From a bacterium (GTDB lineage Bacteria > Spirochaetota > JAHITG01): DNA of 39,063 nt. Shown here piece after piece: positions 2,007-29,998 of this stretch (position 1 is the first letter of the stretch; each line of letters starts with the position of its first letter). The translations under genes were made by a program, and so were the position numbers. Under the pieces are notes generated by a model, which searched no databases, was not told the DNA's origin, and saw nothing but the letters and a program-made list of their open reading frames with translations. The stretch is from positions 1-39,063 of the forward strand of contig JAQTRT010000002.1 of NCBI GenBank assembly GCA_028711675.1, given 5' to 3'.

Positions 2007-4124
2007 ATGGATAAAAAAAATATATTCAAGATGAACCTTATAAAATCTGCCGTTATATCCTGCGCTTTCCTGATGAATTTCCCTGCATTAAATCCGATGA
2101 ACCGGCAAACCTGCGAGTTGGCAGCAGCATCAGTGCCCCATGCATGGAAGGCATTGGCCCTGGTGTACCGGGACATCAATGCCGAATACATCAACAACAA
2201 AAAGCAGGTCCAGCAGCTCCAGGTATCCATGAATGACGCGGATTTCCAGTACACCCTTTCCACTCTGTCCAACTTTCCCCGGACCATCCTGAACTGGTCA
2301 GGCGGTAAGGTTGTCATGGACCTGAAGATCGTGATCGTGGACCACCCCATCCGGTCCCTGAACACGAACGGAGAGCCGAATGAATACCAGGCCCGCCAGG
2401 AGATCGATCTTTACAATCCCGGCAGGATCTATGATTCCGTTGAAATGATCTACTGCCTGAGAGCAGGCGTTGTCAGCGGCTGTTCTTCTGTCGGACTTTC
2501 CGGAACAGCCAATAATGCCGGATTCTCCATTGTCCATATACCCGTCAGCTATAAGGACTGGGGATTATATTATCCCGAAGAAATACTGGTCCATGAATGG
2601 CTGCATAACGTGGAAGGATACTATCAGGGACTGGGATATACGGTGCCCGGACTGCATGATGCTACTGTGTACGGTTATACGTACGACCCCAGTACCAACA
2701 ACACCTGGCAGCACTGGTACAAAGATTACATGCAGAACAAGGTCTGGGACGGTTTCCAGTATATCGGTGTGCCGCCCCAGGCATGGAGCAATTATATTCC
2801 CACAGGCCTGGTGACCATGTCCGTTCCCGGAATACCGGTACCATCGGAACCCAATAATAATTCCACGGGTGTATCCCTGAATACCCTGTTCCGATGGAAC
2901 ACGGTAAATCAGGCTTCCTGGTACGGCCTGCAGGTATCCTCAGACGCGTCATTCACAACAAAGGTCATTGACCGCTGGATCAAGACAAATTCTTATGCCT
3001 GTGCCGGCTTATCGGGCTCGACCATGTATTACTACAGGCTGCGGGCCATCAATCCGGCAGGAACGAACAGCTGGTCCGCAGTTTATTCCTTTACCACGGA
3101 AGCCGGGACTGAGGTCCTCAACAAGGGAAAGGCCCTGCGGTTCGACGGAAAGAACGACCACGTCCGGATCAAAAGCCTTATCCAGGATGATTTTACCGTT
3201 GAAGCCTGGATCAAGACAAAAGCTTCGCGGTCAGGCAGCCAGGTCTGGGAAGGCCTGGGACTTATCTACGCGGATTACCCGGGCGTAGCCGATGATTTCG
3301 GGACAGGCGTCGTAAGCGGAAAATTCGCTTTTTTCACTGGTAACCCGGATACCATGATACAGTCCGTATCATCCGTCACATCCGGCCAATGGACACATGT
3401 GGCCGCAACAAGGGTTAAAGCAACGGGAGTAATGAAAGTATTCGTGAACGGCGTGGAGGAGAGCCGTGCATCCAACATGAACAAGAACTCGCTCACTGCA
3501 CCGGTCTATATCGATATCGGGGGCAACCTCCTGGACCTGCGCACTTTCGACGGGCTCATGGATGAGGTCCGCATCTGGAACACCGCCCGGACCAAAGACG
3601 AGATCATGAGCAACATGAGCAACCAGCTGACAGGAACAGAAACAGGCCTTGTGGGATATTACTGTTTCAATGAAGGAAGCGGTACATCGGCACTGGACAA
3701 GAGCAGCAGCGGGAACCACGGTTATATCAGGTACGGTCCTGTATGGCAGGCGTCCACAGCACCCCTGGTCATCCCGGCGGAACCCGAAATTGTGCCTGAT
3801 CCTGAGCCGGAAAAAGAGGGACCGGACAATACGAATGCGGCATATACGCACCTGGTGATCGGGCCCAATCCTTATAAGCCCAATGACAGGATATTGTCAA
3901 CAGGTACACCGGATACAGGCGTCATCTTTGCCGGAATAACCAGGGACACCAGGATAGAGATATATACAATCGCAGGCCGGCTCATTGCCAGGCTGGAAGA
4001 GAAGGATGATGACAGTAAACTGACATGGCATGTACCGGACACAATAGCCAGCGGTATTTATTTATGCCGCATCATGGACCGGAAAGGAGAAAAAGCAATA
4101 AGGAAGATAGGGATAATAAAATAA
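2007..4124 (+). CDS. Secreted multidomain protein: N-terminal HExxH (HEWLH) region, FN3-like module, LamG/concanavalin-like domain, C-terminal sorting-type domain
   Basis: Contains an HExxH motif (ILVHEWLHNVEGYY). An FN3-like segment follows (PSEPNNNSTGVSLNTLFRWN...YYYRLRAINPAGTNSWSAVYSF). A LamG-like segment runs LRFDGKNDHVRI...FTVEAWIK...WTHVAATR...DEVRIWNTARTKDEI. The C-terminus is GPNPYKPND...SGIYLCRIMDRKGEKAIRKIGIIK. Confidence 0.7.
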   Translation: MDKKNIFKMNLIKSAVISCAFLMNFPALNPMNRQTCELAAASVPHAWKALALVYRDINAEYINNKKQVQQLQVSMNDADFQYTLSTLSNFPRTILNWSGGKVVMDLKIVIVDHPIRSLNTNGEPNEYQARQEIDLYNPGRIYDSVEMIYCLRAGVVSGCSSVGLSGTANNAGFSIVHIPVSYKDWGLYYPEEILVHEWLHNVEGYYQGLGYTVPGLHDATVYGYTYDPSTNNTWQHWYKDYMQNKVWDGFQYIGVPPQAWSNYIPTGLVTMSVPGIPVPSEPNNNSTGVSLNTLFRWNTVNQASWYGLQVSSDASFTTKVIDRWIKTNSYACAGLSGSTMYYYRLRAINPAGTNSWSAVYSFTTEAGTEVLNKGKALRFDGKNDHVRIKSLIQDDFTVEAWIKTKASRSGSQVWEGLGLIYADYPGVADDFGTGVVSGKFAFFTGNPDTMIQSVSSVTSGQWTHVAATRVKATGVMKVFVNGVEESRASNMNKNSLTAPVYIDIGGNLLDLRTFDGLMDEVRIWNTARTKDEIMSNMSNQLTGTETGLVGYYCFNEGSGTSALDKSSSGNHGYIRYGPVWQASTAPLVIPAEPEIVPDPEPEKEGPDNTNAAYTHLVIGPNPYKPNDRILSTGTPDTGVIFAGITRDTRIEIYTIAGRLIARLEEKDDDSKLTWHVPDTIASGIYLCRIMDRKGEKAIRKIGIIK

Positions 4125-4129
4125 AAGCA

Positions 4130-5785
4130 TCAGTAGCATTTTTTTATGGTCTTATCACAGGTATAGATAAAATAGGATCCGCGCGTTCCGTCATGAAACA
4201 GCTTTAAGGCTTTCTGGACCGTCTCATTAAGTTTCCGGGTCTGCAGGTCCATTGTGCACACATTCCCGTCATAGCCGATCAGGAATAATCTTCCTTCATG
4301 GGCAAAAACATCTTTGATCTCTTTGCCTGTATCGTATTCTTTCAGAACCTTTCCTGTCCTGTGGTCTATGCGTGTGATCCTCCCGTCCCTGTTGGCCCGG
4401 TACAGGTCATCTTCGTCATTAAAAACGAAATGTGCCGGGGAACCTGTTTCTATCCATAATAAAGTCCCCTTGTCCCGGTCGAAGGCCATAAGAAGACCTC
4501 CTGCGGTCTTAATGACAATGGCTGTACGGAACAGGATGGGTTTGGATCCCGTTACTTTATCCCTGATGGGGATCTTCCCGGTTATCTTATTCTTATCCAG
4601 GTCATAAACATAAAAATGCCGGTCGATGGAACTGATGAACAGTTTATTATCCGCGCAGAGCAGAGGCGCCCATACCGGGATGGACAGATCTGTTCTTTTT
4701 AATATATTACGGCTCTTATCTATTCTATACAATACGCCTTCCGTATTCATCAGGATGATCTCATCCCTGAAGGGGATTGGCGCGGAATACAGCAGTGTGC
4801 CTGTGTTCCTGATCATATCCCATTTCCCGTTCTCCAGCGAATAAACATACAGGTTCTTATCGTATCCGCTGATATAGATATCGTTGTTTATGATGACAGG
4901 TATTGATTTGCTCCGGACCGGCAGTAAAAGATGCAGGAAGAGATCGCCTGTTCTGTTGTCAAAGAGATACAGGTCCTTCTTGAAATTATGGATGATGAAA
5001 TACCGTGTATCGAATGAATACAGATACTCATCCTGGTCCAGCCCGATCTTTTCGAGTTTCTGTGAACCGTTCTCCTCCAGGACCTCCGGTGTGATACGGT
5101 TGCTCCGGATGCTGACAGTGCCCTTTTTATCCGTGGAAAGCAAGGATCGGCCGGCTGATTCAATGTCCAGATGCCCTTCCCTGAGGATGATCTTGATGTC
5201 ATTCGTATTATTATAAATAACCTCCATCCGGGAGCCTTTCAGATATAGATCGTACCGGTCAACGTTCAATTGGACAAGATGGTCTTTCCTGGATTTCATA
5301 TCTATGGTCAGGCCGCCGTTCAGGAGCCGGACACGGATAAAAGAGTACAGTCTTATTTTTTCGATCAAAACGCCTGATCCCGGATTTATCCGGACCAGGA
5401 CAGAATCATCCCGATGGCGCCTGCTGATGGTTAAAGGACTGTCAGCCCGGGTCATCACACGGCTGCCTTCCCTGATCTTGATATCCTTAAAGACCGGTAT
5501 GGAAACATCCTTGACACGGACAAGGGCGCAGCCACGGAGGTCCTGGACATGGAGATAATTGTCCCGTTGCCGGAGAGCCGTGAAGAAGATCAGGAAAAGG
5601 AGAAGAGAAAAACCGAGTCCCAGGGATAAACTCACTGGCCTTGACCGCCGAAAGTCCCGGAAGGGCTGCTCTTCCTTTTCCAATGCTTTGTCGAACCTTT
5701 CCCACCTTCCTTCCGGCACCGGTTCATTCTTCACCAGTTCATCAGAATAAATCTTTAACACTTTAAATATTTGATCTAATTTCAT
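4130..5785 (-). CDS. Membrane-spanning anti-sigma factor candidate with periplasmic PQQ-like beta-propeller repeats
   Basis: Sits 15 nt downstream of the ECF sigma gene on the same strand. It has a short cytoplasmic N-terminus and one TM segment (VSLSLGLGFSLLLFLIFFTAL). Propeller-type repeats recur (DIYISGYDKNLYVYSLENGK, LFISSIDRHFYVYDLDKNK, LLMAFDRDKGTLLW, DLYRANRDGRITRIDHRTGK, LFLIGYDGNVCTMDLQTRK). Confidence 0.6.
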   Translation of the reverse strand: MKLDQIFKVLKIYSDELVKNEPVPEGRWERFDKALEKEEQPFRDFRRSRPVSLSLGLGFSLLLFLIFFTALRQRDNYLHVQDLRGCALVRVKDVSIPVFKDIKIREGSRVMTRADSPLTISRRHRDDSVLVRINPGSGVLIEKIRLYSFIRVRLLNGGLTIDMKSRKDHLVQLNVDRYDLYLKGSRMEVIYNNTNDIKIILREGHLDIESAGRSLLSTDKKGTVSIRSNRITPEVLEENGSQKLEKIGLDQDEYLYSFDTRYFIIHNFKKDLYLFDNRTGDLFLHLLLPVRSKSIPVIINNDIYISGYDKNLYVYSLENGKWDMIRNTGTLLYSAPIPFRDEIILMNTEGVLYRIDKSRNILKRTDLSIPVWAPLLCADNKLFISSIDRHFYVYDLDKNKITGKIPIRDKVTGSKPILFRTAIVIKTAGGLLMAFDRDKGTLLWIETGSPAHFVFNDEDDLYRANRDGRITRIDHRTGKVLKEYDTGKEIKDVFAHEGRLFLIGYDGNVCTMDLQTRKLNETVQKALKLFHDGTRGSYFIYTCDKTIKKCY

Positions 5786-6619: not shown

Positions 6620-7609
6620 ATGAAGAAAAAAAATCCTTTTTCATTTTTTTTAAATTATACAGCTTTCATTAAGATAATGACGATAAAAACACTGTATATC
6701 CTTTTTTTCCTCTTACTGCCGATTTCCCTGTTATCCGGTAATGACCGGTACGATCTCTCTTCATTCCAATTCCTGAAGGTCCAGCCTACGGCCAGGAACG
6801 CAGCCCTGGAAAACGCAGGGACCTCCCTTTACGGATCCATTGAAAATCTTTCTTCCAATCCTGCCGGTATCTTTTTCCCGGGCCAAATGGAATTCTCCAT
6901 GCATTACATGAACTGGCTTCACGAGATCCATTATACTTCACTGGCATACGGCATCCGTCTGGACGATTCGAGTATCCTGGGATTCGGGGTCCTGGGTCTC
7001 TTTTACGGGGATATCCCTGTTGTGAACTTTAACAGCAGCGGAGAATTATCGGAAACAGGGAATACGAGCGCTTATGACTTTGCTTTCTCCGCCTGCTATC
7101 ACCGCCGGTTGACCGGGATGATCTCATCAGGGGTCTCCCTTAAAGTACTTTACGAACAGATAGAAAAAGAAAGAGCAACAGGTCTGGCACTGGATACCGG
7201 GGTCCTTATCCATTTAATGGATAATAAACTGAACCTGGGGCTGGCGGTACTGAACATCGGCCCTGAAATAAAATTCAGCGGGAAAAAGGATGATCTGCCC
7301 CTGTCCGTCAATACCGGGATAAGCGTCAAGCTGATACAGCAAAAGGAACATTCAGGCCTTATTGCCCTGGATATGATCTACCCTAATGACGAAAAAATGA
7401 AAACACGGCTGGGAATTGAATACGGCCTGATGGACCTGTTTTTCGGAAGAGCGGGTTATCAGACCGGTGACGACCTGAGCACATGGAGCATAGGCTGCGG
7501 ATTAAAGCTGAAAATCGGATCAAAAGTCATCAGAGCCGATTATACCTACTTGCCGCGCAGCGAGCTGAACAACACGCATATCATAGGGCTGGTCATCGGC
7601 CTGAACTAA
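6620..7609 (+). CDS. Outer-membrane beta-barrel protein, PorV/PorQ-like (type IX secretion-associated family)
   Basis: Has a signal-like N-terminus. The N-terminal family-type motif is FQFLKVQPTARNAALENAGTSLYGSIENLSSNPAGI. Alternating beta-strand character runs to the C-terminus, and the gene is embedded among the CTD cargo genes. The alternative start is ATG 6677 (MTIKTLYILFF...). Confidence 0.55.
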   Translation: MKKKNPFSFFLNYTAFIKIMTIKTLYILFFLLLPISLLSGNDRYDLSSFQFLKVQPTARNAALENAGTSLYGSIENLSSNPAGIFFPGQMEFSMHYMNWLHEIHYTSLAYGIRLDDSSILGFGVLGLFYGDIPVVNFNSSGELSETGNTSAYDFAFSACYHRRLTGMISSGVSLKVLYEQIEKERATGLALDTGVLIHLMDNKLNLGLAVLNIGPEIKFSGKKDDLPLSVNTGISVKLIQQKEHSGLIALDMIYPNDEKMKTRLGIEYGLMDLFFGRAGYQTGDDLSTWSIGCGLKLKIGSKVIRADYTYLPRSELNNTHIIGLVIGLN

Positions 7610-7632
7610 AACATTTTAAAAGAGGCGCGTAC

Positions 7633-9651
7633 GTGAAAAAACCGATAACTCTTCTCCTTTTCACGGTCTTTCTTTTGAACGTCATAACAATCATAATGGC
7701 AGACACCATCATCCCGGCCTCGAGACGGATCGACTGGACGCCGGGGATCCCCAACGGTATTCCGGATTCAACCGGCTGGGCCGTACGGAACGTCAAAGAT
7801 TACGGGGCAAAAGGGGACGGCGTGACCGATGATTACTTCGCCGTCATGAAAGCTATTTCCAATGCGCAGGCAAGCAACGTGATTTATTTTCCGGCAGGCA
7901 CATACACCGTCTCATCACAGATCATCATAAATTATAAAAATCCGAAACATCATGTTCTCCTGAAAGGCGCCGGGCCGTCAGGGACAATCATACGGTACAC
8001 GGGAACGGAATCAAGCCATAAGGGTATCATTTATTTTCAAAACACATCCGGGGCCGAAAGGGAGATCGACCTTTCCTCCGGTTTCACCAAGGACAGTATT
8101 TCCCTCGTATCCGGTTCAACCGTCCCGTTCCGGATAAACGACCATATCCTGATCGACCAGCTGAATGACCCTGCAGTTGTCAAGCTCAACGACCCGGACA
8201 CATATTATTCACGGGACAACGCGACACGCTGCATCGGCGAGATCGCCCGCGTGACCGCAACCAACGGGGCCGCGATAACCATCGACCACCCCCTGCACTG
8301 GAACTATAATTCAGGTTATACGCCCCAGGCCTGGAGAACGCATGACTCATCAAAATCATGTTATCTGCTGGGTATCGAAGATTTAAAGATCGAAAACATG
8401 AATCATCCTGATATCAATCTCATTTATTTCAATCACGGCCTCCAGTTCTGGGCCCGGAACGTGGAAGGCTGCCGGTCAGGGCAGACGCATGTCAGGCTGG
8501 CTTACAGCTACCAGTGTGAAATAAGAGGATCTTATTTCCACCATTCGCAGCAATACACCAGCGGCCAGGGTTATGGGGTACGGATATGTTATCAGACCAC
8601 GGACTGCCTGATCGAAGACAATATTTTCCATTATCTGCGCCATTCCATGGTCCTGATAGGCGGCGGGACAGGTAATGTTTTTGGCTATAATTACAGCAGT
8701 CGGATGTTCAATGATAATTACCCGAACACGGATTGGCTTACCGGCGACCTGCTGTGCCACGGCCCTCATCCCATGATGAACTTATTCGAAGGGAATATGG
8801 GATGCCTGCTCTTATTCGATTATGTACACGGTTCCGCAAGCCATATCACTGCTTTCCGGAACCATATAGCAGGATACAGCCAGGGAGAAAGCTGCGCGGT
8901 TTCCAAGGCTCTCCGCTGCGTCGGGATCGACCAGACCAATTATAACATGAACATCGTGGGCAATGTCCTGGGTTTATCCGATGATACAGGTATTTATGAA
9001 ACCAATTACTGGGCTTCCGGCGACTACAGGAAAACAGTCTGGAAGATCGGATACAATTCCTCTGTGTACAACGGATATCCCGTTGATACGAATTGCCGGA
9101 CCACAGCCATCAGGCACGGTAATTATGATTCTATCACCCGCTCCACACACTGGGACCCGGCTATTTCAGATCTCACCCTGACAAATTCCTATTACCTGAA
9201 AAGCAAACCTTCATTTTTCGGAAGTTTAACCTGGCCCTGCATAGGACCGGACCTGAATCCCATGGTCAGTACTATACCGGCCAAGCAAAGATATGATCAG
9301 ATGTCCGCCGGTCCCCCGTCATCCCCGGCAGCTCCTGCGACAAATCTCACACCAGGCAGCTCAAGTAATTTAAAGCAGGTGATCGTCGGCCCTAATCCTT
9401 ATAAATCCAATAAAACAACATTCCCCTCGGAAATCTATAAAGAGAGCATTACATTCCAGAAACTGACGAAACAAGCTTATATTAAAATATTCTCGGTGAG
9501 CGGGAAATTAGTGGATGAATTCGAGGAAACGGACAATGACGGCCGGTATATCTGGAAAATCCCCGGTCCCCTGGCAAGCGGTGTCTATCTCTGCGAGATA
9601 TCGAACAAGCAGGGAGAAAGGGTCAGGAGGAAGATCATGATCATCAAATGA
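7633..9651 (+). CDS. Secreted right-handed beta-helix protein (pectate-lyase-3/GH28-related N-terminus) with C-terminal sorting-type domain
   Basis: NVKDYGAKGDGVTDDYFAVMKAISNA is the classic N-terminal signature of the Pectate_lyase_3 / GH55-GH28-related beta-helix. The C-terminus is GPNPYKSNK...SGVYLCEISNKQGERVRRKIMIIK. I chose the GTG start at 7633, which has AAAAGAGG upstream and a signal peptide (KKPITLLLFTVFLLNVITIIMA). The longer ORF from 7483 would overlap the upstream gene by 127 nt. Confidence 0.7.
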   Translation: MKKPITLLLFTVFLLNVITIIMADTIIPASRRIDWTPGIPNGIPDSTGWAVRNVKDYGAKGDGVTDDYFAVMKAISNAQASNVIYFPAGTYTVSSQIIINYKNPKHHVLLKGAGPSGTIIRYTGTESSHKGIIYFQNTSGAEREIDLSSGFTKDSISLVSGSTVPFRINDHILIDQLNDPAVVKLNDPDTYYSRDNATRCIGEIARVTATNGAAITIDHPLHWNYNSGYTPQAWRTHDSSKSCYLLGIEDLKIENMNHPDINLIYFNHGLQFWARNVEGCRSGQTHVRLAYSYQCEIRGSYFHHSQQYTSGQGYGVRICYQTTDCLIEDNIFHYLRHSMVLIGGGTGNVFGYNYSSRMFNDNYPNTDWLTGDLLCHGPHPMMNLFEGNMGCLLLFDYVHGSASHITAFRNHIAGYSQGESCAVSKALRCVGIDQTNYNMNIVGNVLGLSDDTGIYETNYWASGDYRKTVWKIGYNSSVYNGYPVDTNCRTTAIRHGNYDSITRSTHWDPAISDLTLTNSYYLKSKPSFFGSLTWPCIGPDLNPMVSTIPAKQRYDQMSAGPPSSPAAPATNLTPGSSSNLKQVIVGPNPYKSNKTTFPSEIYKESITFQKLTKQAYIKIFSVSGKLVDEFEETDNDGRYIWKIPGPLASGVYLCEISNKQGERVRRKIMIIK

Positions 9652-9681: not shown

Positions 9682-10143
9682 TCAGTAACCGGACCTTTTA
9701 CCGGTGAGCGGAGAGATATCAACCTTTATAACGCTGACTTTTTTCAATGCTTCTTTAGAGAAAGAGAATTTTCCAGTCCGCGGATATTTCCTTATGATAC
9801 ATTCAAGGGCTTTCTTTTTTTTAGCGGGATCTGTCATCACACTGGCCCGGCCGTATCCGATGACGCTGAGATAACGCATCCTCCAGTTACAGGGACGGAC
9901 GGACCGGACAACCCTGGTCCTGATATCCGTTTCAAAGCAGACATTTTTATTCTTCCTCAGCATATCCATTTTTTTCCCTTCCGAGGCCGAATGAAGATAA
10001 AGGCAGGAACCGTCATATCCGAAATTCATAGGCACGATATAAGGTTCACGGCCCAGGCAGAAGCCCACACGGCAGACCCGGGCTTCATGAAGGATGGCAT
10101 TTATTTCCCTTCTCCCTGTGATCTCCTTATCTTTTCTCCGCAT
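9682..10143 (-). CDS. Pyridoxamine 5'-phosphate oxidase-like FMN-binding split-barrel protein (Nim/Pyridox_ox_2-like)
   Basis: MRRKDKEITGRREINAILHEARVCRVGFCLGREPYIVPMNFGYDGSCLYLHSASEGKK matches the family N-terminal pattern, and the size is ~150 aa. The start codon overlaps the stop of the upstream gene (TAATG). Confidence 0.75.
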   Translation of the reverse strand: MRRKDKEITGRREINAILHEARVCRVGFCLGREPYIVPMNFGYDGSCLYLHSASEGKKMDMLRKNKNVCFETDIRTRVVRSVRPCNWRMRYLSVIGYGRASVMTDPAKKKKALECIIRKYPRTGKFSFSKEALKKVSVIKVDISPLTGKRSGY

Positions 10144-10955
10144 TATTTTTTATACTCCTTCTCAAAGAGCGCCAGGGCTTCGGGCAGTTTAATACGGAAG
10201 ATCCCCTGAAAAACAGACCTGTCATGCCTGGGATCTTTAATGTACCGGGAAAGGAATACCCGGAATTTCTCCGGCCCGTATGTTTCGACAAGATACTGGA
10301 TAAAGTACCTGTACAGTGTGTAATTGAACCCGGGTGCCATGGGATCAAGGTTAGAATAAATATCCCTGTTGTTTTCCTGGTAAGTGAACTTCTTTTTTTT
10401 CCATTCCCGTACGAACTCATTACGGGTCATGTAATACGGTCCCCCGAAATAACAGGCTGTTCCCTCAGAAACCCAGTGCTGGCCTGTGATCCTCATGGAT
10501 TTCAAGATCCCGGTGTTCTGCTGGACGAGGCTGTGGCAAAGTTCATGCCTGATGTACTGGGGCTCCTTTCTTCCGCTGCGAACGATACGCGGCTGGTCGA
10601 TATAAACAACATCGCCTGTCTCAAGTGCCCTGCCGCCCATCCCGTAATTCCTCATCCAAAGCATGATACGGCCCATCTCACTGAACCGGCCTTTGTCATC
10701 CAGGGCCACAAAGACCTTCACAGGTTTCCTGTATTTCAGGCCGTACAGCTTTTCTGCTTCAGCCATGATCCTGTCGATCGTATGATACACAGGGTCCAGT
10801 TTGTTCTTATCACGGATGAACACAACAGCTTTCCGGGACCTGATCTGATGATATCCCGGCCTGAGAGGGCTCCAGGGCAGCAACGGACCATAGAGAAATA
10901 AAAAAATGATTAAAAGGAACGGAACGAGCAGAAGAACTATTGTGCGCTTTTTCAT
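10143..10955 (-). CDS. Membrane-anchored putative zinc metallopeptidase (peptidase MA-like, HExxH + downstream E)
   Basis: HExxH motif (IRHELCHSLV) followed by WVSEGTACYF, the gluzincin-type third ligand context. An N-terminal TM/signal segment is present (KKRTIVLLLVPFLLIIFLFLY). ATG 10955 is preceded by AAGAGG. The longer ORF to 10985 would run into the inverted repeat. Confidence 0.5.
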   Translation of the reverse strand: MKKRTIVLLLVPFLLIIFLFLYGPLLPWSPLRPGYHQIRSRKAVVFIRDKNKLDPVYHTIDRIMAEAEKLYGLKYRKPVKVFVALDDKGRFSEMGRIMLWMRNYGMGGRALETGDVVYIDQPRIVRSGRKEPQYIRHELCHSLVQQNTGILKSMRITGQHWVSEGTACYFGGPYYMTRNEFVREWKKKKFTYQENNRDIYSNLDPMAPGFNYTLYRYFIQYLVETYGPEKFRVFLSRYIKDPRHDRSVFQGIFRIKLPEALALFEKEYKK

Positions 10956-10967
10956 GACAACCTCTTG

Positions 10968-11068
10968 GGGGACGGTGCTTGACATTTTGACATTTTGTCA
11001 GGGATACTGAAACAGATGGGGAAAATAAGTTATTTTATTAAAATGTCAAAATGTCAAGCACCGTCCCC
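10968..11068. repeat. Perfect 29-bp inverted repeat with a 43-nt spacer; each arm contains tandem TTGACATT units
   Basis: The left arm GGGGACGGTGCTTGACATTTTGACATTTT (10968-10996) is the exact reverse complement of 11040-11068. The repeat fills the gap between the stop of the 11068-11727 gene and the RBS of the 10143-10955 gene. Confidence 0.9.
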
Positions 11069-11727
11069 TATTTTATCTTAAAATCTTTCAGGGTACAGTT
11101 GAACATGTTCCAGTTTATTCCGTACATCATGTATTTTTTCAGGTCTACCCTCTCCGGGATATAGAACGCATCCTGCTTTCTGAATGTGACCCCGATCTCA
11201 TATTTCTCGTTCCTGTCCATGACCATAAGCTGGTTGGTTCCCAAGGGACAAAGAGTGATATCGCTGAATTTACCGTTGAGAAAAAGGGTATGGGACGGTT
11301 TATCCGGCAGGACCTTGGCAATAAAGGAATGGACAAAGGCCAGCAGAGAATTGCTCTTGTTCCGGTTCGTATAATCCTGCCGGTTCGTCTGGAAGCCGCT
11401 GTACCGTACATATCCGACTACATTGGATAAAAAAACGATATTCTCGTATGACAGCTTGTTCCCGCTGCTGGTCCGGATATCATCGCGCAACGAATCCATC
11501 CCTGTCTGCCAGGAGCACCGGTCCTCCTGTTGAAAGTCGATCAAACCGCTGGCCGTTATCCGGACCCTGGCTGTCACATGATTGGAATAATGGACAAGCC
11601 GGATCTGCCCGATGGACAGGGAGCCCAGATTAAGGATATAATCGATCTGGTAGACCGCCTGTAAAGGACCAAGACCTCCTCCCAACAGAAGTAAACCAAG
11701 CACACGGATCCCTTTTCCTATTCCCAT
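11068..11727 (-). CDS. Hypothetical secreted protein (possibly DUF3108-like)
   Basis: Signal-like N-terminus (GIRVLGLLLLGGGLGPLQA). I recognise no catalytic motif, and the family guess is weak. Confidence 0.4.
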   Translation of the reverse strand: MGIGKGIRVLGLLLLGGGLGPLQAVYQIDYILNLGSLSIGQIRLVHYSNHVTARVRITASGLIDFQQEDRCSWQTGMDSLRDDIRTSSGNKLSYENIVFLSNVVGYVRYSGFQTNRQDYTNRNKSNSLLAFVHSFIAKVLPDKPSHTLFLNGKFSDITLCPLGTNQLMVMDRNEKYEIGVTFRKQDAFYIPERVDLKKYMMYGINWNMFNCTLKDFKIK

Positions 11728-11754: not shown

Positions 11755-13980
11755 TTACTGGGCGCTTTTCACATCTTCGATAATTAGGGAAACGCTTTCC
11801 TTATTGTTCCAGGTATTTATTTCCGGCCTGAAAACGATATGATACTGTTCACCCACGGCAAAATCCTTGCCCTGCGCGACACCGCCCCAGAACAAGGCGT
11901 CAAAAATATGCCGGTCATCCTTTCCGACCCGGAGCTTCAGGTGTTTTTTATTGCTCCCGATCATCTGGACATTGTAAAGCCGGACGTCTTTCAGCAGAAA
12001 GAGCGGTTCATCGTTATCCTCTCCGAACGGCTCAAAGAGCTGCTCCATCTTTTTCATCATATTCACTGTCAGGTCATCCAGGCTGATCTCAGCGTCGATC
12101 TCCAGGACAGGAATAAGATCCTCCTCCTTTAACTCCTTCTCCGCAATGGCTCTCAAACGGGTCTTGAACGCCTCCAGATTTTCCTGCTTGATGGAAAAGC
12201 CAACGGCATATTTATGCCCGCCGAAATCTATGAACAGGTCCCTGCACTGCTTGAACGCTTCGAAGATCTTGAACTGCTCAATGCTGCGGGCCGTGCCCAC
12301 GCCTTCCCCGTCCTTGAGGATCAGGATCACCACAGGCCTGTAGAACATCTCCAGGATCCGGTTGGCGATCACTCCGGTTACCCCATGCTCCATGTCCTCG
12401 ATATCGATGATGAAGATCTTATCCTTCTCTACATCCACCTTCTGTTCCAGGATACCCATCACCTTGTCGAAATTCACCTGCTGCTTATCTTTCCGCTGCT
12501 GGTTCAGGATGAGCAGTTCATCCACGATCTTTTCCGCTTCCTTGTAGCTGTCGCTGATCAGCAGTTTCAGGGCTTTGTCCGCGATGCCCATGCGGCCGGC
12601 CGCGTTCAGGATAGGGATGACTTTCCAGGAAAGGGCCCTGGCTGTCAGGGTTTTCTGGCTGATGTTCAGCTTTTTCAGGAGGATCTCAAGCCCGATGATA
12701 TCCGTGCTCTTCAGCTTCTCCAGGCCTTTCCGGACAATCAGCCTGTTCTCATCCCGGAGCGGCACAACGTCCGCAATGCTTCCCAGGACCGCATATTCAC
12801 TGAACGCCTCCAGGATATTCTTGATCTTCTTGGTCACCTTGAAGAATTTTTTAAAGATCTCATAGGTCACCCTGGCATCCACCATGGCGCCATGGAACTT
12901 CCCTTCCTCTTTGATATGAAAATAAGCAGCCACACTCTCCAGTTTATTATGGGGCAGATGAAGATAGCTCCTGGCCAGCTCGAGCGTGTCCACCATCTCG
13001 TTCTTGATCTTTATGTCCAGGCACGTCTTGATATCCCGCCTGAGGAAATGGATGTCAAAACCGGTTATATTATGTCCCACCAGGACAGCATCCTTGATGA
13101 ACTCATAAAAGCCGCCAATGACACGGGAGATTGGTTCCTCGTTCTGAAGCTGTTCTTCAGTGATGCCTGTTAAATCCTGGACTTCCCGGGAAAGGGCCTT
13201 GGGGGGTTTCACATATTTATGGAATTCGCCTGTTTTGATGAAGTTCCGGTATTTAACAGCTCCTATCTCGATGATCTCTTCATTCAATTCAAAGCCCGTA
13301 GTCTCCAGGTCAAGCACAACGATCTCTCTGTCATAGAACTGGGAATAGGAAAGGAAGATTCCGCACAGGAGCTTATAGGCCACACCCACGCCCGCCAGGT
13401 CCTTGAAGGGATAATTCTCCTCGCATTTAGGATTCAGGACAGCCAGGGCTTCAGGCAGCTTTTCACCCGGTGTATGGTGGTCCGTGATAATGACGTCCAT
13501 GCCGTTCTCCACAGCCTTCTTCACCGCGTCAAATTCGGAGATCCCGTTATCAACCGTGATAATGAGATTACAGCCGCCGGCCTTGAACTGTTCGACGTAT
13601 TCCGTGTTGATGCCGTAACCGTCTTTGGCTGAAGGGACAAAAACCTCGACACGGCCGTTCAGCTTTTTCAGGGCTCTATAGACCATGGCACTGCTGGATA
13701 CGCCGTCCACATCGCGGTCGCCATAGATGAATATCTTTTCTTTGGCTTCAAGAGCTTTCCGGATCCGGTCCACGGCCTTCTGCATATCCCGGAACAGGAA
13801 AGGATTATGAAGGTCGTTGATCAGATCGGGATTAAGAAAGCTGCGTGCGGATTCCCTGTCCTGCACACCCTTGCTGTTCAATAAAACAGCAAAGAACCGG
13901 TTGAACCCCAGTTCCAGACCGAGTCTGCTGATCGTCTCTTCATCATGGGATTTCAGTTTCCAAATCTTGTTTTTTATCAT
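11755..13980 (-). CDS. recJ: Single-stranded-DNA-specific exonuclease RecJ carrying an inserted DnaQ-like DEDDh 3'-5' exonuclease domain
   Basis: DHH motifs are present (IFIYGDRDVDGVSS, ITVDNG, ITDHH), as are LAGVGVAYKL, the LGSIADVVPL linker and DHHA1 FGGHKYAVG. Between AYKL and LGSIADVVPL lie ~170 extra aa carrying ExoI VLDLETTG, ExoII LVGHNITGFDIHFL and ExoIII HGAMVDARVTYEIF. Confidence 0.9.
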   Translation of the reverse strand: MIKNKIWKLKSHDEETISRLGLELGFNRFFAVLLNSKGVQDRESARSFLNPDLINDLHNPFLFRDMQKAVDRIRKALEAKEKIFIYGDRDVDGVSSSAMVYRALKKLNGRVEVFVPSAKDGYGINTEYVEQFKAGGCNLIITVDNGISEFDAVKKAVENGMDVIITDHHTPGEKLPEALAVLNPKCEENYPFKDLAGVGVAYKLLCGIFLSYSQFYDREIVVLDLETTGFELNEEIIEIGAVKYRNFIKTGEFHKYVKPPKALSREVQDLTGITEEQLQNEEPISRVIGGFYEFIKDAVLVGHNITGFDIHFLRRDIKTCLDIKIKNEMVDTLELARSYLHLPHNKLESVAAYFHIKEEGKFHGAMVDARVTYEIFKKFFKVTKKIKNILEAFSEYAVLGSIADVVPLRDENRLIVRKGLEKLKSTDIIGLEILLKKLNISQKTLTARALSWKVIPILNAAGRMGIADKALKLLISDSYKEAEKIVDELLILNQQRKDKQQVNFDKVMGILEQKVDVEKDKIFIIDIEDMEHGVTGVIANRILEMFYRPVVILILKDGEGVGTARSIEQFKIFEAFKQCRDLFIDFGGHKYAVGFSIKQENLEAFKTRLRAIAEKELKEEDLIPVLEIDAEISLDDLTVNMMKKMEQLFEPFGEDNDEPLFLLKDVRLYNVQMIGSNKKHLKLRVGKDDRHIFDALFWGGVAQGKDFAVGEQYHIVFRPEINTWNNKESVSLIIEDVKSAQ

Positions 13981-17964: not shown

Positions 17965-18711
17965 TTACCACTCGTCGGATATTTCCAATCCGGGATAAGT
18001 CTTGGCATACTGGTCCAGTAATGCTTCCACCTGATCGATATAGACATAAAATGTTTTATGCTGTTCGTCCGCAAACTGCGAAGGAATGCAGGTTACCTGA
18101 AATCCGGCAAGCTCGATCACTTTTCTCTGCGGATACAGGTCGTAATTCTGGGGGATGTAAGACGGGATACTCACCTCACAGTATTTCCATCCCAGAAAAT
18201 CAAGCTTCGAAACGAATACGGGATAATTCCTGCCCAGATAATCTTTCAGGATCAGTTCGAAATCCACGTTCCGGCCGCGGCCGAGGACCCATAAAGCGAT
18301 CTTTTTACAATAACCGTCCATCTGGTAAGACTGCTTGGCTTTCAGGAACACGGAAGCCCTGATCAATTCCGGAAAAGAGACCTTTACGCCCAGGCAGCTG
18401 CTGTTGTCCTTATAATTATCCATCAGGAACCGGCCTGTCTTCAGGCTGCTGAAAACAAGGCTGGGTTCTGTTTTCTTAAAATATGCCTTTAACTCCGTGG
18501 ATTCGCTCTTCTGTTCGCTGCTTTTCTGCGAAGAAGCGTTCAGATCCCAGTTATTGATCTTACTGAATTCAAAATCATCCACGAGGACCCATCTTTGATA
18601 ATCCAGGGGGGTTACGAATTTCAGCTTTATGTTCTGGTAATCGGTCTGACCAGCCAGGGACATAGTAAAAAACATAATAAAAAGAACGGATAAAACGCAT
18701 TTCATCTTCAT
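17965..18711 (-). CDS. Secreted protein resembling the FlaA (spirochaetal flagellar filament outer-layer protein) family
   Basis: Signal peptide present. The pattern VLVDDFEFSKINNWDLNASS ... IALWVLGRGRNVDFELILKDYLGRNYPVFVSKLDFLGWKYCEVSIPSYIPQ ... LAGFQVTC...FYVYIDQVEALLDQY parallels the FlaA layout as I recall it (VLIDFSKL, W.V.LNSS, ..D..G....Y.MG.L.F..WKEL....P.YI, F.GF.V, Y..YFKDV.I.YD). This is memory-based only. Confidence 0.45.
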   Translation of the reverse strand: MKMKCVLSVLFIMFFTMSLAGQTDYQNIKLKFVTPLDYQRWVLVDDFEFSKINNWDLNASSQKSSEQKSESTELKAYFKKTEPSLVFSSLKTGRFLMDNYKDNSSCLGVKVSFPELIRASVFLKAKQSYQMDGYCKKIALWVLGRGRNVDFELILKDYLGRNYPVFVSKLDFLGWKYCEVSIPSYIPQNYDLYPQRKVIELAGFQVTCIPSQFADEQHKTFYVYIDQVEALLDQYAKTYPGLEISDEW

Positions 18712-21807: not shown

Positions 21808-21835
21808 AGTATATCCCGTTTTACTTTAAAGTCAA
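21808..21835 (-). promoter_or_regulatory. Promoter for the lipoprotein operon: TTGACT-N16-TATACT
   Basis: On the minus strand, -35 is at 21830-21835 and -10 at 21808-21813. It lies between structured element A and the 21757 start. Confidence 0.4.
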
Positions 21836-21867
21836 GAAAAAAAAGGGTGTGTACTATATAAATACTT

Positions 21868-22011
21868 AAAGGGGTGAAATTGATATTTGTTTTTTTCTCA
21901 TTCTCACGCCCCATCCGTGGGGTGCTGCGAGGGTTCCGCCGGTTTTCACATCCTTGTGAAAACGACGGCTCCACAAACCGAAAAAAAAACAAATATCAAC
22001 TCCACCCCTTT
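21868..22011 (-). ncRNA. Unclassified structured element, copy A (candidate structured RNA, alternatively a MITE-like repeat)
   Basis: Homologous to 28689-28848 in the opposite orientation. A 29-bp closing stem joins 21868-21896 and 21983-22011. Read as minus-strand RNA, its two imperfect positions are G-U wobbles; on the plus strand they would be A-C mismatches. Internal hairpins lie at 21942-21963 and 21905-21924. Confidence 0.45.
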
Positions 22012-22043
22012 TAACAACTTAACTTCTTTTTAAAATATCCCCG

Positions 22044-28627: not shown

Positions 28628-28656
28628 TTGGAATTATAAAATAAAACCCATACAAT
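28628..28656 (+). promoter_or_regulatory. Candidate promoter upstream of structured element B: TTGGAA-N17-TACAAT
   Basis: -35 at 28628-28633 and -10 at 28651-28656. The predicted TSS is about 25 nt upstream of the element. Confidence 0.3.
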
Positions 28657-28688: not shown

Positions 28689-28848
28689 AATGGATCGACA
28701 ATATTTTCTGGTTTTTCGGTTTGTGAAGCCGTCGTTTTCACAGGATGTGAAAACAGGCCGAAGGTACCCTCCGGAGTACGGAACCCTCGGAGCGACACAT
28801 GGATGTGTCGCGAGAATGAGAAAAAACAGAAAATATTGTCGATCCATT
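28689..28848 (+). ncRNA. Unclassified structured element, copy B (candidate structured RNA, alternatively a MITE-like repeat)
   Basis: A perfect 22-bp closing stem (AATGGATCGACAATATTTTCTG / CAGAAAATATTGTCGATCCATT) extends about 6 bp further after one mismatch. Hairpin 28734-28754 is GTTTTCACA-GGA-TGTGAAAAC. Hairpin 28792-28811 is GCGACACA-TGGA-TGTGTCGC. An extra hairpin sits at 28758-28774. Confidence 0.45.
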
Positions 28849-28936: not shown

Positions 28937-29998
28937 ATGTATAAAATCGCGGTGATCGCCGGTGACGGCACCGGCCCGGAAATGGTAAAGGAGGGACTGA
29001 AGGTACTGAAAGCTGTTTCCGATGTAAAAGGCATTCAATTTGATTATAAGCAATATGATTTTGGCTCCAACCGTTATCTTCAAACAGGCGAAACCCTTCC
29101 GGATTCAGCTGTTTCGGAATTGAAGCAGTTCGACGCCATCTACCTGGGCGCTATCGGCGACCCGCGCGTGGCTCCCGGGATCCTGGAACAGGGCATCCTT
29201 TTAAAACTGAGGTTCGAACTGGACCTGTACATCAACCTCAGGCCTGTGAAACTTTACCCCGGTGTCGAGACCCCTTTAAAGGATAAAGGGCCGAAGGATA
29301 TCGATTTTATCGTTGTCCGGGAGAACACGGAGAGCCTGTATATCGGTGCCGGCGGTTTTTTAAAAAAAGGCACGCAGGATGAAGTGGCCATGCAGAACAT
29401 GATCATGACCCGGAAAGGCACGGAACGCTGTATCCGGTACGCCTTTGACCTTACGCGCAGGAGGAACAAGGAGAAAAAACTAACCCTGTGCGGGAAGACC
29501 AACGTGCTCACTTATGCCTGGAACCTGTGGGAACGCACGTTCAACGAAGTGGCCGGGGAATACAAGGACATCAAGACCGATTATGCCCATGTGGATGCCA
29601 CGACCATGTGGTTTGTGAAGAACCCGGAATGGTTCGACGTGATCGTAACGGACAACATGTTCGGCGACATCATCACGGACCTGGGCGCCATGATCCAGGG
29701 CGGGATGGGCGTGGCAGCCGGCGGTAATATCAATCCTCAAGGCGTTTCCATGTTCGAGCCCATCAGCGGCTCAGCACCCAAGTATGCCGGCAAGAACGTG
29801 ATCAATCCCATTGCCACGATCATGGCCGGTCAGATGATGATCGATTTCCTCGGCGAACACGAGGCAGCGGCCCTGATCGAAGAAGCCGTAATGGACACGA
29901 TCAAAAAAATGAAATCCATGTCAGCCGGCAAGATGGGTATGGGTACGGATGAAGTGGGTGACCGCGTCGCTGAATACATAAAAAAGAAAGGAAAATAA
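28937..29998 (+). CDS. Isopropylmalate/tartrate/D-malate dehydrogenase family enzyme (3-isopropylmalate dehydrogenase candidate)
   Basis: [41 protein letters not shown] and [14 protein letters not shown]. The layout resembles the TtuC/archaeal-type LeuB branch. GGAGG lies upstream of the start. Confidence 0.8.

Follow-up and report, generated by a model that had tools for sequence, protein, structure and literature searches.

A two-copy structured intergenic element with CsrA-type GGA-loop hairpins, a possible TwoAYGGAY-like RNA in an uncultured Spirochaetota lineage

The RNA signal preferred by the regulator CsrA has been defined by systematic evolution of ligands by exponential enrichment (SELEX) as RUACARGGAUGU, with ACA and GGA invariant and the GGA placed in a hairpin loop (PMC4347634). 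CsrB and CsrC contain 13–22 GGA motifs in the account of them used here (PMC6546359). Small RNA antagonists of CsrA are described, in the sources followed here, as established only in γ-proteobacteria, with FliW taking that role elsewhere. The TwoAYGGAY RNA, found in Clostridia, γ-proteobacteria and gut metagenomes, displays two AYGGAY terminal loops and a helix P1 that in many cases is very long, for example 24 bp (Weinberg et al. 2010, PMC2864571). Gardner and Eldai recognised the CsrA-binding motif in its loops, noted the poor conservation of the outer stem and proposed that the RNA sequesters CsrA (PMC4333381). The family (RF01731) is filed by Rfam under clan CL00106 (Csr-Rsm protein binding). 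Here we describe an intergenic element that occurs twice, as copies A and B, in a 39,063-nt stretch of DNA (hereafter the window; contig JAQTRT010000002.1 of assembly GCA_028711675.1) from a bacterium of the GTDB lineage Spirochaetota, JAHITG01. The element is read, tentatively and with a probability of roughly 40%, as a TwoAYGGAY-like RNA that is located at operon 3′ ends and binds a CsrA-type protein.

Two homologous copies and their helices

The reverse complement of copy A (21868–22011, read on the minus strand; 144 nt as RNA) aligns with copy B (28689–28848, plus strand; 160 nt), and the two are homologous. On this point, already made in the first-pass annotation of the window, the alignment, an inverted-repeat search between the loci (matches of 48 nt at 83% and 42 nt at 88%) and an nhmmer profile of the pair (E 1e-43 and 3.5e-50 for its own two loci) all agree; the count of two refers to the 39-kb window. 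Both copies fold strongly, with minimum free energies of −75.5 kcal/mol (z −10.75) for A and −76.2 kcal/mol (z −10.07) for B. The z-score of about −10 belongs to the whole element, the cores taken without their closing stem giving z −3 to −4.8 on both strands alike. The open reading frames crossing A and B have only FRFV.PSFSQ in common, as had been noted, and six-frame translations of both copies, compared with 5.8 billion proteins, matched none at E≤10. The element is non-coding, strongly structured and present in two copies, which confirms the original observation.

Three helices, the closing stem and two hairpins, are found in both copies despite their different sequences, in agreement with the first description. 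In copy A the closing helix P1 joins a 5′ arm, AAAGGGGUGGAGUUGAUAUUUGUUUUUUUUUCG (21979–22011, minus strand), to a 3′ arm at 21868–21900 over 33 bp; the inverted-repeat search returned it as 32-nt arms that are 91% complementary. In copy B the arms (28689–28717 and 28820–28848, plus strand), recovered both as an inverted repeat and in the fold, measure 29 nt and are 97% complementary, with 22 perfect outer base pairs, one G·A mismatch and six further pairs in which the 5′ arm reads UUUUUC.

Conservation between the copies is distributed unevenly. The ends of the element are its least conserved part, the outer 5′ arm being identical at 5/12 positions and the 3′ arm at 10/22; the inner 5′ arm (AUAUUU in register) follows with 7/11. 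The 5′ core including hairpin 1 is identical at 44 of 46 positions, the segment CGGAACCCUCGSAGC at 14 of 15 and the segment GAGAAUGAGAAAAAA at all 15, while hairpin 2 retains 13 of 20. Without hairpin 2, and without a 21-nt insertion that the alignment assigns to copy B alone (CCGAAGGUACCCUCCGGAGUA, 28758–28778, plus strand), the core is 96% identical (73/76). The insertion is itself a small hairpin, flagged by the hairpin scan on the minus strand, and its G–U wobble lies on the strand opposite to the one proposed for the element. About 60 nt are conserved outside the hairpins, in the segments UUUUUCGGUUUGUGRAGCCGUCG, CGGAACCCUCG and GAGAAUGAGAAAAAA.

The changes that did occur in the helices preserve pairing. 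The outer arms of the closing stem, said earlier to be largely different yet fully paired, are indeed at chance identity and fully paired in each copy; if homology in register is assumed for the arms, both sides have changed in 13 of the 23 pairs, and all are still paired. Two pairs of hairpin 2 are C–G in A and A–U in B, again as first described, and the stem in A additionally holds an A·C mismatch and a G–U pair that had gone unmentioned. A compensated hairpin 2 stem with its loop kept, linkers at 96% identity and a freely varying outer stem form the patchwork that would be expected of a functional RNA.

The same pattern admits a different explanation, which is the main rival of the CsrA reading and which we regard as somewhat unlikely: a small repeated palindromic DNA module of about 115–135 bp, comprising the core and the inner arms and resembling miniature inverted-repeat transposable elements (MITEs) or repetitive extragenic palindromic (REP) sequences, might have been duplicated into the tips of intergenic hairpins or terminators that were already in place. 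In that case the outer stem would belong to the host sequence, and its apparent compensatory changes would reflect non-homology instead of selection on RNA. The contrast between a 96% identical core and arms at chance level speaks for such a module, since point mutation alone would be insufficient to produce it after a recent duplication, as does the presence of two inverted copies within 7 kb. The outer arm of A (AAAAGGGGUGGAG...CUCCACCCCUUUU), as read from its sequence, also resembles a terminator stem. However, the conserved terminal repeats of a MITE are absent, and no consistent target-site duplication is visible in the flanks (GTTGTTA|...|AAGTATT for A, GAGAGGT|...|GTCGTGA for B). Excision of the module from B would leave a loop-less perfect palindrome of 22 bp, an odd target, and the divergence of the core is concentrated in a single hairpin stem and compensated there, unlike that of a neutral repeat. 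The least conserved ends, the lack of a target-site duplication and the compensated changes in hairpin 2 thus favour a functional structured RNA. With this divergence pattern the earlier preference for selection on structure over a plain MITE is partly supported, albeit a module duplicated into pre-existing hairpins could also produce such a contrast between core and arms.

A strand had also been proposed on the grounds that the imperfect pairs of the copy A stem are wobbles only if the minus strand is the RNA. With the stem taken to 32–33 bp there are three such positions and not two as first counted; all are G–U on the minus strand and A·C on the plus strand, and copy A folds at −75.5 kcal/mol on the former and −62.9 kcal/mol on the latter. 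This agrees with the proposed strand, although three of three positions would favour one strand by chance with a probability of about 1 in 4. The minus strand of A is also the strand of a sub-threshold Rfam match to a family of the Csr-Rsm clan, and on the proposed strand all four hairpin loops read GGAUG.

Several other readings of the element were dropped on sequence grounds, namely a coding open reading frame, an attC site and domain V of a group II intron. For attC, the ends read AAAGGGG.../...CCCCTTT and AATGGAT.../...ATCCATT, to be compared with RYYYAAC ... GTTRRRY; the neighbours are housekeeping genes and the window contains no integrase.

GGA loops and the TwoAYGGAY family

Hairpin 1 of copy A (21942–21963, minus strand) is GUUUUCACA-AGGA-UGUGAAAAC. 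Its loop context, ACAAGGAUGU, corresponds to the last ten positions (ACARGGAUGU) of the SELEX consensus, and the 12-mer UCACAAGGAUGU agrees with the full consensus at 10 of 12. Hairpin 1 of copy B (28734–28754, plus strand), GUUUUCACA-GGA-UGUGAAAAC, has the same stem with a loop shorter by 1 nt (context CACAGGAUGUG). Hairpin 2 is CUCGCAGCACCCCA-CGGA-UGGGGCGUGAG in copy A (21903–21931, minus strand; context CCACGGAUGG) and GCGACACA-UGGA-UGUGUCGC in copy B (28792–28811, plus strand; context ACAUGGAUGU). GGAUG is found in all four loops and CA-N-GGAUG, which is the CsrA/Rsm site of high affinity, in three. Hairpin 1 of A and hairpin 2 of B each match RUACARGGAUGU at 10/12 positions, including the invariant ACA and GGA and with the GGA in the loop; the loop signature of the Csr/Rsm clan (RUACARGGAUGU or CANGGANG in hairpin loops) is thereby present. 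Because (A)CA-N-GGAUG loops are the preference of CsrA/Rsm proteins, we read the element as an RNA that would bind a CsrA-type protein. The two GGA sites are separated by 37 nt in A and 58 nt in B, distances that are within the bridging range of one CsrA dimer.

Hairpins with a GGA loop and at least 6 perfect base pairs number ten in the window, and three of them belong to the two elements. Two others lie in coding regions: one at 8518–8538 (plus strand), in the gene at 7483–9651, has a perfect 9-bp stem (gaaataagaGGAtcttatttc), and one at 29272–29290 (plus strand), in leuB, has a stem of 7 bp (ccctttaAAGGAtaaaggg). A scan of the gene leaders in the window for GGA hairpins yielded only small ones centred on the Shine-Dalgarno sequence, of doubtful meaning. 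In a relative (locus L087, 11673–11718), the leader of an amidase-type gene forms a pair of hairpins, UUUAUACCAAGGAUGGUAUAAA and UUCUCAAGGAUGAGAA, each with a CAAGGAUG loop; the second overlies the Shine-Dalgarno site immediately upstream of the ATG. By analogy this would be the classic layout of a CsrA-repressed mRNA, and the two-hairpin leader suggests that the lineage makes use of CsrA-type recognition.

At Rfam gathering thresholds the whole window gave no match. In sensitive searches of both copies, copy A (21864–22015 of the minus strand, within a 281-nt query) matched the full TwoAYGGAY model, RF01731, below threshold with 35.2 bits (E 3.7e-4). The AYGGAY loop is present in hairpin 2 of both copies (ACGGAU in A, AUGGAU in B). 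In hairpin 1 the Y position holds a purine or is deleted (AAGGAU in A, (C)AGGAU in B), and the published seed rows of the family include AAGGAU and AGGGAU/A-GGAC variants. Published rows also show the loops ACAUGGAUGU, ACACGGAUGU and ACAAGGAUGU, and several copies occur in one Psychromonas genome. A large P1 of variable sequence is likewise present (A, 33 bp; B, 22+6 bp). The P2 helix and the three-way junction with conserved junction purines are absent from the element, and the Rfam alignment of A flags non-canonical pairs in P2.

A number of points weigh against a CsrA-binding, TwoAYGGAY-like RNA. The score of copy A lies below the RF01731 gathering threshold of 43 bits, and copy B did not match that family at E≤10 in the sensitive Rfam search. 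Through its long AU-rich stem, copy A also matches MIR821 and Phe_leader below threshold, and a long hairpin of relative L090, unrelated to the element, scores 44 bits against Plastid-psbJ-2, also below threshold, indicating that long hairpins inflate sub-threshold Rfam scores. Since long AU-rich hairpins match unrelated families comparably, much of the TwoAYGGAY score of A may come from P1. We accordingly removed P1 from 11 published TwoAYGGAY cores, and with a covariance model of these both strands of the 39-kb window were searched with filters off. Its best match was hairpin 2 of copy B (15.4 bits, E 0.025) and its second-best was hairpin 1 of copy A (13.6 bits, E 0.09), that is, one hairpin per element, and the TwoAYGGAY junction was not reproduced. 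An inter-hairpin fold common to both copies was rejected as well, the A-type fold costing B 10–14 kcal/mol relative to its own minimum. CsrA binding by TwoAYGGAY is itself a prediction only. Each element offers only two GGA sites, and its roughly 60 conserved nucleotides outside the hairpins are not explained by CsrA binding. The evidence for the strand is weak and the fold of copy B carries no strand signal; two sequences are too few for covariation statistics. Finally, tblastn searches for csrA and fliW found neither in the window or in any fetched locus, and signal scans showed A to be without a clear promoter and B without a clear terminator.

What the element and TwoAYGGAY have in common is the building plan and the hairpin sequences. 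Membership in RF01731 is not established, because the matches are to single hairpins and there is no common inter-hairpin fold. The conserved linkers, together with a junction layout unlike that of TwoAYGGAY, would suit a structured RNA with another partner or activity, such as a different protein recognising GGAUG loops, a processing substrate, or a fold that binds a ligand or is catalytic, in which case the likeness to CsrA sites would be coincidental. We consider this unlikely: TwoAYGGAY is the only meaningful Rfam match, and the region between the hairpins has no fold that is consistent between the copies.

Genomic setting and distribution

The window represents ordinary chromosome, with genes for an ECF sigma factor, RecJ, L21, a FlaA-like protein, an HD phosphohydrolase, an amidohydrolase, a GH94 enzyme, an ion channel, LeuB, Asd, EF-G, aspartokinase and proteins with type-IX secretion sorting tails. 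It contains no transposase, integrase, recombinase, reverse transcriptase or Cas gene. The RecJ-like protein (11755–13980, minus strand) carries an RNase_T/DnaQ-type exonuclease domain (residues 221–376) between DHH and DHHA1. The type-IX secretion C-terminal sorting domains are encoded at 2007–4124, 7483–9651 and 17965–18711, with the homologue of the spirochaete-type flagellar sheath protein FlaA in the same window.

Copy A starts 33 nt past the stop codon of the HD gene on the minus strand, in the GH94-amidohydrolase-HD operon, and the promoter-like site of the next minus-strand gene (TTGACT-16-TATACT, 21808–21835, minus strand) lies 33 nt downstream of it. Copy B starts 90 nt past the stop codon of the plus-strand ion-channel gene and ends 17 nt before a TTGCTT-16-TATAAT sequence, read by eye, upstream of leuB. 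Gene positions confirm the earlier claim that, in the proposed orientation, A and B run in the same direction as the genes on either side, and each stands just before the next promoter. Judging from these signals, both sit where the upstream transcript should end, and their position between a stop codon and the next promoter points to an element of the 3′ untranslated region (UTR) or terminator zone, or to a small RNA gene. The 500 nt scanned at copy B hold four promoter-like sites where 0.9 would be expected; one of them, TTGGAA-17-TACAAT (28628–28656, plus strand; 33 nt upstream of B), is weak, with 9/12 positions matching, and is a possible promoter of copy B itself.

This location raises the question whether the element acts purely in cis, as an oversized terminator or an exonuclease-blocking stabiliser of the GH94-amidohydrolase-HD operon (A) and of the ion-channel gene (B), with no partner in trans. 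The distances to the stop codons and to the next −35 box (17–33 nt) agree with such a role, as do the G+C-rich base of the A stem, followed by UUU, and a canonical terminator that occupies the equivalent spot in the closest relative (L081). Nevertheless, the terminator scan detected no intrinsic terminator at the 3′ end of either copy. The U tract of A is interrupted, UUU giving way to AAG before a U8 run 22 nt further downstream, and no U tract follows the stem of B. A terminator, moreover, has no need of a 96%-conserved branched core or of conserved GGAUG loops. A role of this kind alone seems improbable to us.

No further copy of the element was encountered. In the window and in a further 1.27 Mb of DNA, the A/B nhmmer profile found its own two loci and nothing else. 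An exact 21-mer of the 5′ core occurs in none of 185,579 species genomes and had 0 matches in JGI metagenomes, three patterns gave 0 matches in viral contigs, and blastn in distant mode against plasmids and phages gave nothing relevant. A gapped pattern of the 3′ core matched the metagenomes once, in a soda-lake sediment contig (L082). This candidate was rejected: it has no long stem, folds with z +0.57, matches nothing in Rfam and is missed by the nhmmer profile. As all structural features are missing and about one such match is expected, it is probably due to chance. The match (8834–8915) lies approximately 700 nt upstream of the start of a TnpB-like open reading frame (7002–8126, minus strand), with TTTTTCGG on the expected side.

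The databases contain no close relative of the host, which appears to belong to a poorly sampled lineage. LeuB is at most 76% identical to proteins of GTDB species representatives; these are spread over many phyla, which makes them useless for synteny. The best relative of the HD protein shares 71% identity and the next ones 62–51%, the labelled ones coming from metagenome-assembled genomes called Spirochaetes or Elusimicrobiota. We examined about 125 kb around HD homologues from nine relatives, in ten loci (L081 and L083–L091, of which L088 and L089 have the same gene set). The nhmmer profile detected no copy in this DNA, and about 102 kb of it (L085 and L089 left out) contained no TwoAYGGAY-like Rfam match.

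The site of copy A can be followed in two of these relatives. In L081, the 71% relative, the downstream promoter is kept (CTTGACTTT ... TATACTGTATG; window 21808–21840 and L081 1806–1840 are nearly identical), and a plain terminator hairpin stands in place of the element; upstream of the promoter the two sequences are wholly different, the proteins being about 71% identical. In L091, the position of copy A downstream of the HD homologue, before the same TTGACT promoter box, is taken by an unrelated 27-nt imperfect inverted repeat of CACAGAG units (3108–3266), which encloses about 105 nt of AT-rich DNA, is followed by T8 and folds with z −7.25. The same relative has a gene for an IS110-family transposase at 7852–8946; IS110 elements target palindromic repeats.

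Long perfect intergenic hairpins are common in the lineage. A third long inverted repeat of the window (10968–11068) reaches from the stop codon of the gene at 11068–11727 (minus strand) to the start of that at 10143–10985 (minus strand); it has perfect 29-bp arms (GGGGACGGTGCTTGACATTTTGACATTTT), which contain TTGACATTT twice, around a 43-nt centre, and folds with z −11.3. In L090, a perfect hairpin of about 40 bp (4929–5015) lies upstream of the HD gene. This hairpin and the 10968–11068 palindrome have in common the 9-mer GGGGACGGT/ACCGTCCCC and a CTTGAC motif, which may constitute a lineage-specific palindromic motif. A resemblance between the outer arm of A and the 10968–11068 palindrome (GGGG..GG.G.TTGA.ATTT) was discarded as not significant (shuffle p = 0.19).

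These hairpins, together with the replacement of the element by a plain terminator in L081 and by another inverted repeat in L091, add to the case for a palindromic module that entered existing hairpins. As regards the filled and empty sites of a MITE family, the observations are two copies within 39 kb and a site A that lacks the element in L081, a relative with only 71% identity at the protein level. Against a module stand the lack of a transposase, recombinase or reverse transcriptase gene in the window and the lack of any other copy in the window, the 1.27 Mb of loci, the genome, metagenome, viral, plasmid and phage collections and the 125 kb from relatives. If insertion into hairpin tips were real, it would represent an unusual targeting behaviour. 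A combination of both ideas, which we consider very unlikely, is a mobile cassette: a conserved module of about 110 nt, with both CsrA-type hairpins and the inner stem, that is copied into apical loops of the long intergenic hairpins and terminators abundant in this lineage. Such a cassette would turn operon 3′ ends into CsrA-titrating or CsrA-controlled 3′ UTRs, and would constitute a mobile module of regulatory RNA, in a phylum without a known RNA antagonist of CsrA.

A possible CsrA-binding RNA and its comparison with known systems

If the element is a CsrA-binding RNA, each copy would be transcribed on the strand of its neighbouring genes, as a 3′-UTR or terminator-zone element or as a small RNA gene at that position. 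A closing helix of some 30 bp would carry a branched core whose two hairpins expose (A)CA-N-GGAUG apical loops, and these, being 37–58 nt apart, would suit a single CsrA dimer. The element could act as a decoy titrating a CsrA-type regulator; alternatively, it might serve as a tag that places the 3′ end of the upstream transcript under CsrA control. The long perfect helix could confer resistance to nucleases or provide a processing site for RNase III.

A role of TwoAYGGAY-type RNAs as CsrA decoys in other phyla has been a proposal since 2015. The element described here realises the design a second time and independently, with two ACA-N-GGAUG hairpins on a long closing helix, and its occurrence in a deeply branching uncultured lineage strengthens the case that the design is functional and not the quirk of one family. 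Copies A and B form a natural pair of variants, with the same loops on different stems and with or without the 21-nt insert.

Among known intergenic repeats, Correia/NEMIS and ERIC sequences measure about 100–160 bp, have long terminal inverted repeats, are co-transcribed with their neighbours and form long hairpins. Their termini are conserved and they are bordered by target-site duplications; in the present element, by contrast, the termini are the least conserved part and a target-site duplication is not seen.

A weak local match (18 nt, 15 bits, E 2.2) connects hairpin 1 of copy B, on the opposite strand, with Bacillaceae-1 (RF01690), the reverse complement of which has been proposed in RMfam to carry a CsrA motif (PMC4333381). 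That reverse complement resembles the element in having a hairpin with a CsrA-type GGA loop, and its overall architecture is different.

The established sponges of clan CL00106 (CsrB and CsrC, and RsmX, RsmY and RsmZ) likewise present GGA in hairpin loops that match the CsrA consensus. Unlike CsrB and CsrC, with their many GGA sites, the element has two, and it possesses a long closing helix; a dedicated promoter and terminator, as in the Csr/Rsm sponges, are not evident.

The closest likeness is to TwoAYGGAY. Both have a long P1 of variable sequence, U-rich on its 5′ strand and A-rich on its 3′ strand, and two hairpins with ACA-Y/A-GGAUGU terminal loops; both can occur in several copies per genome with no tie to particular genes. 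They differ in that TwoAYGGAY encloses its hairpins in a P2 helix with a conserved AAGUGA/GAAC junction, whereas the element has conserved linkers of its own and, in copy B, an extra 21-nt hairpin, and in that its host is an uncultured lineage and not one of the Clostridia or γ-proteobacteria in which TwoAYGGAY is found.

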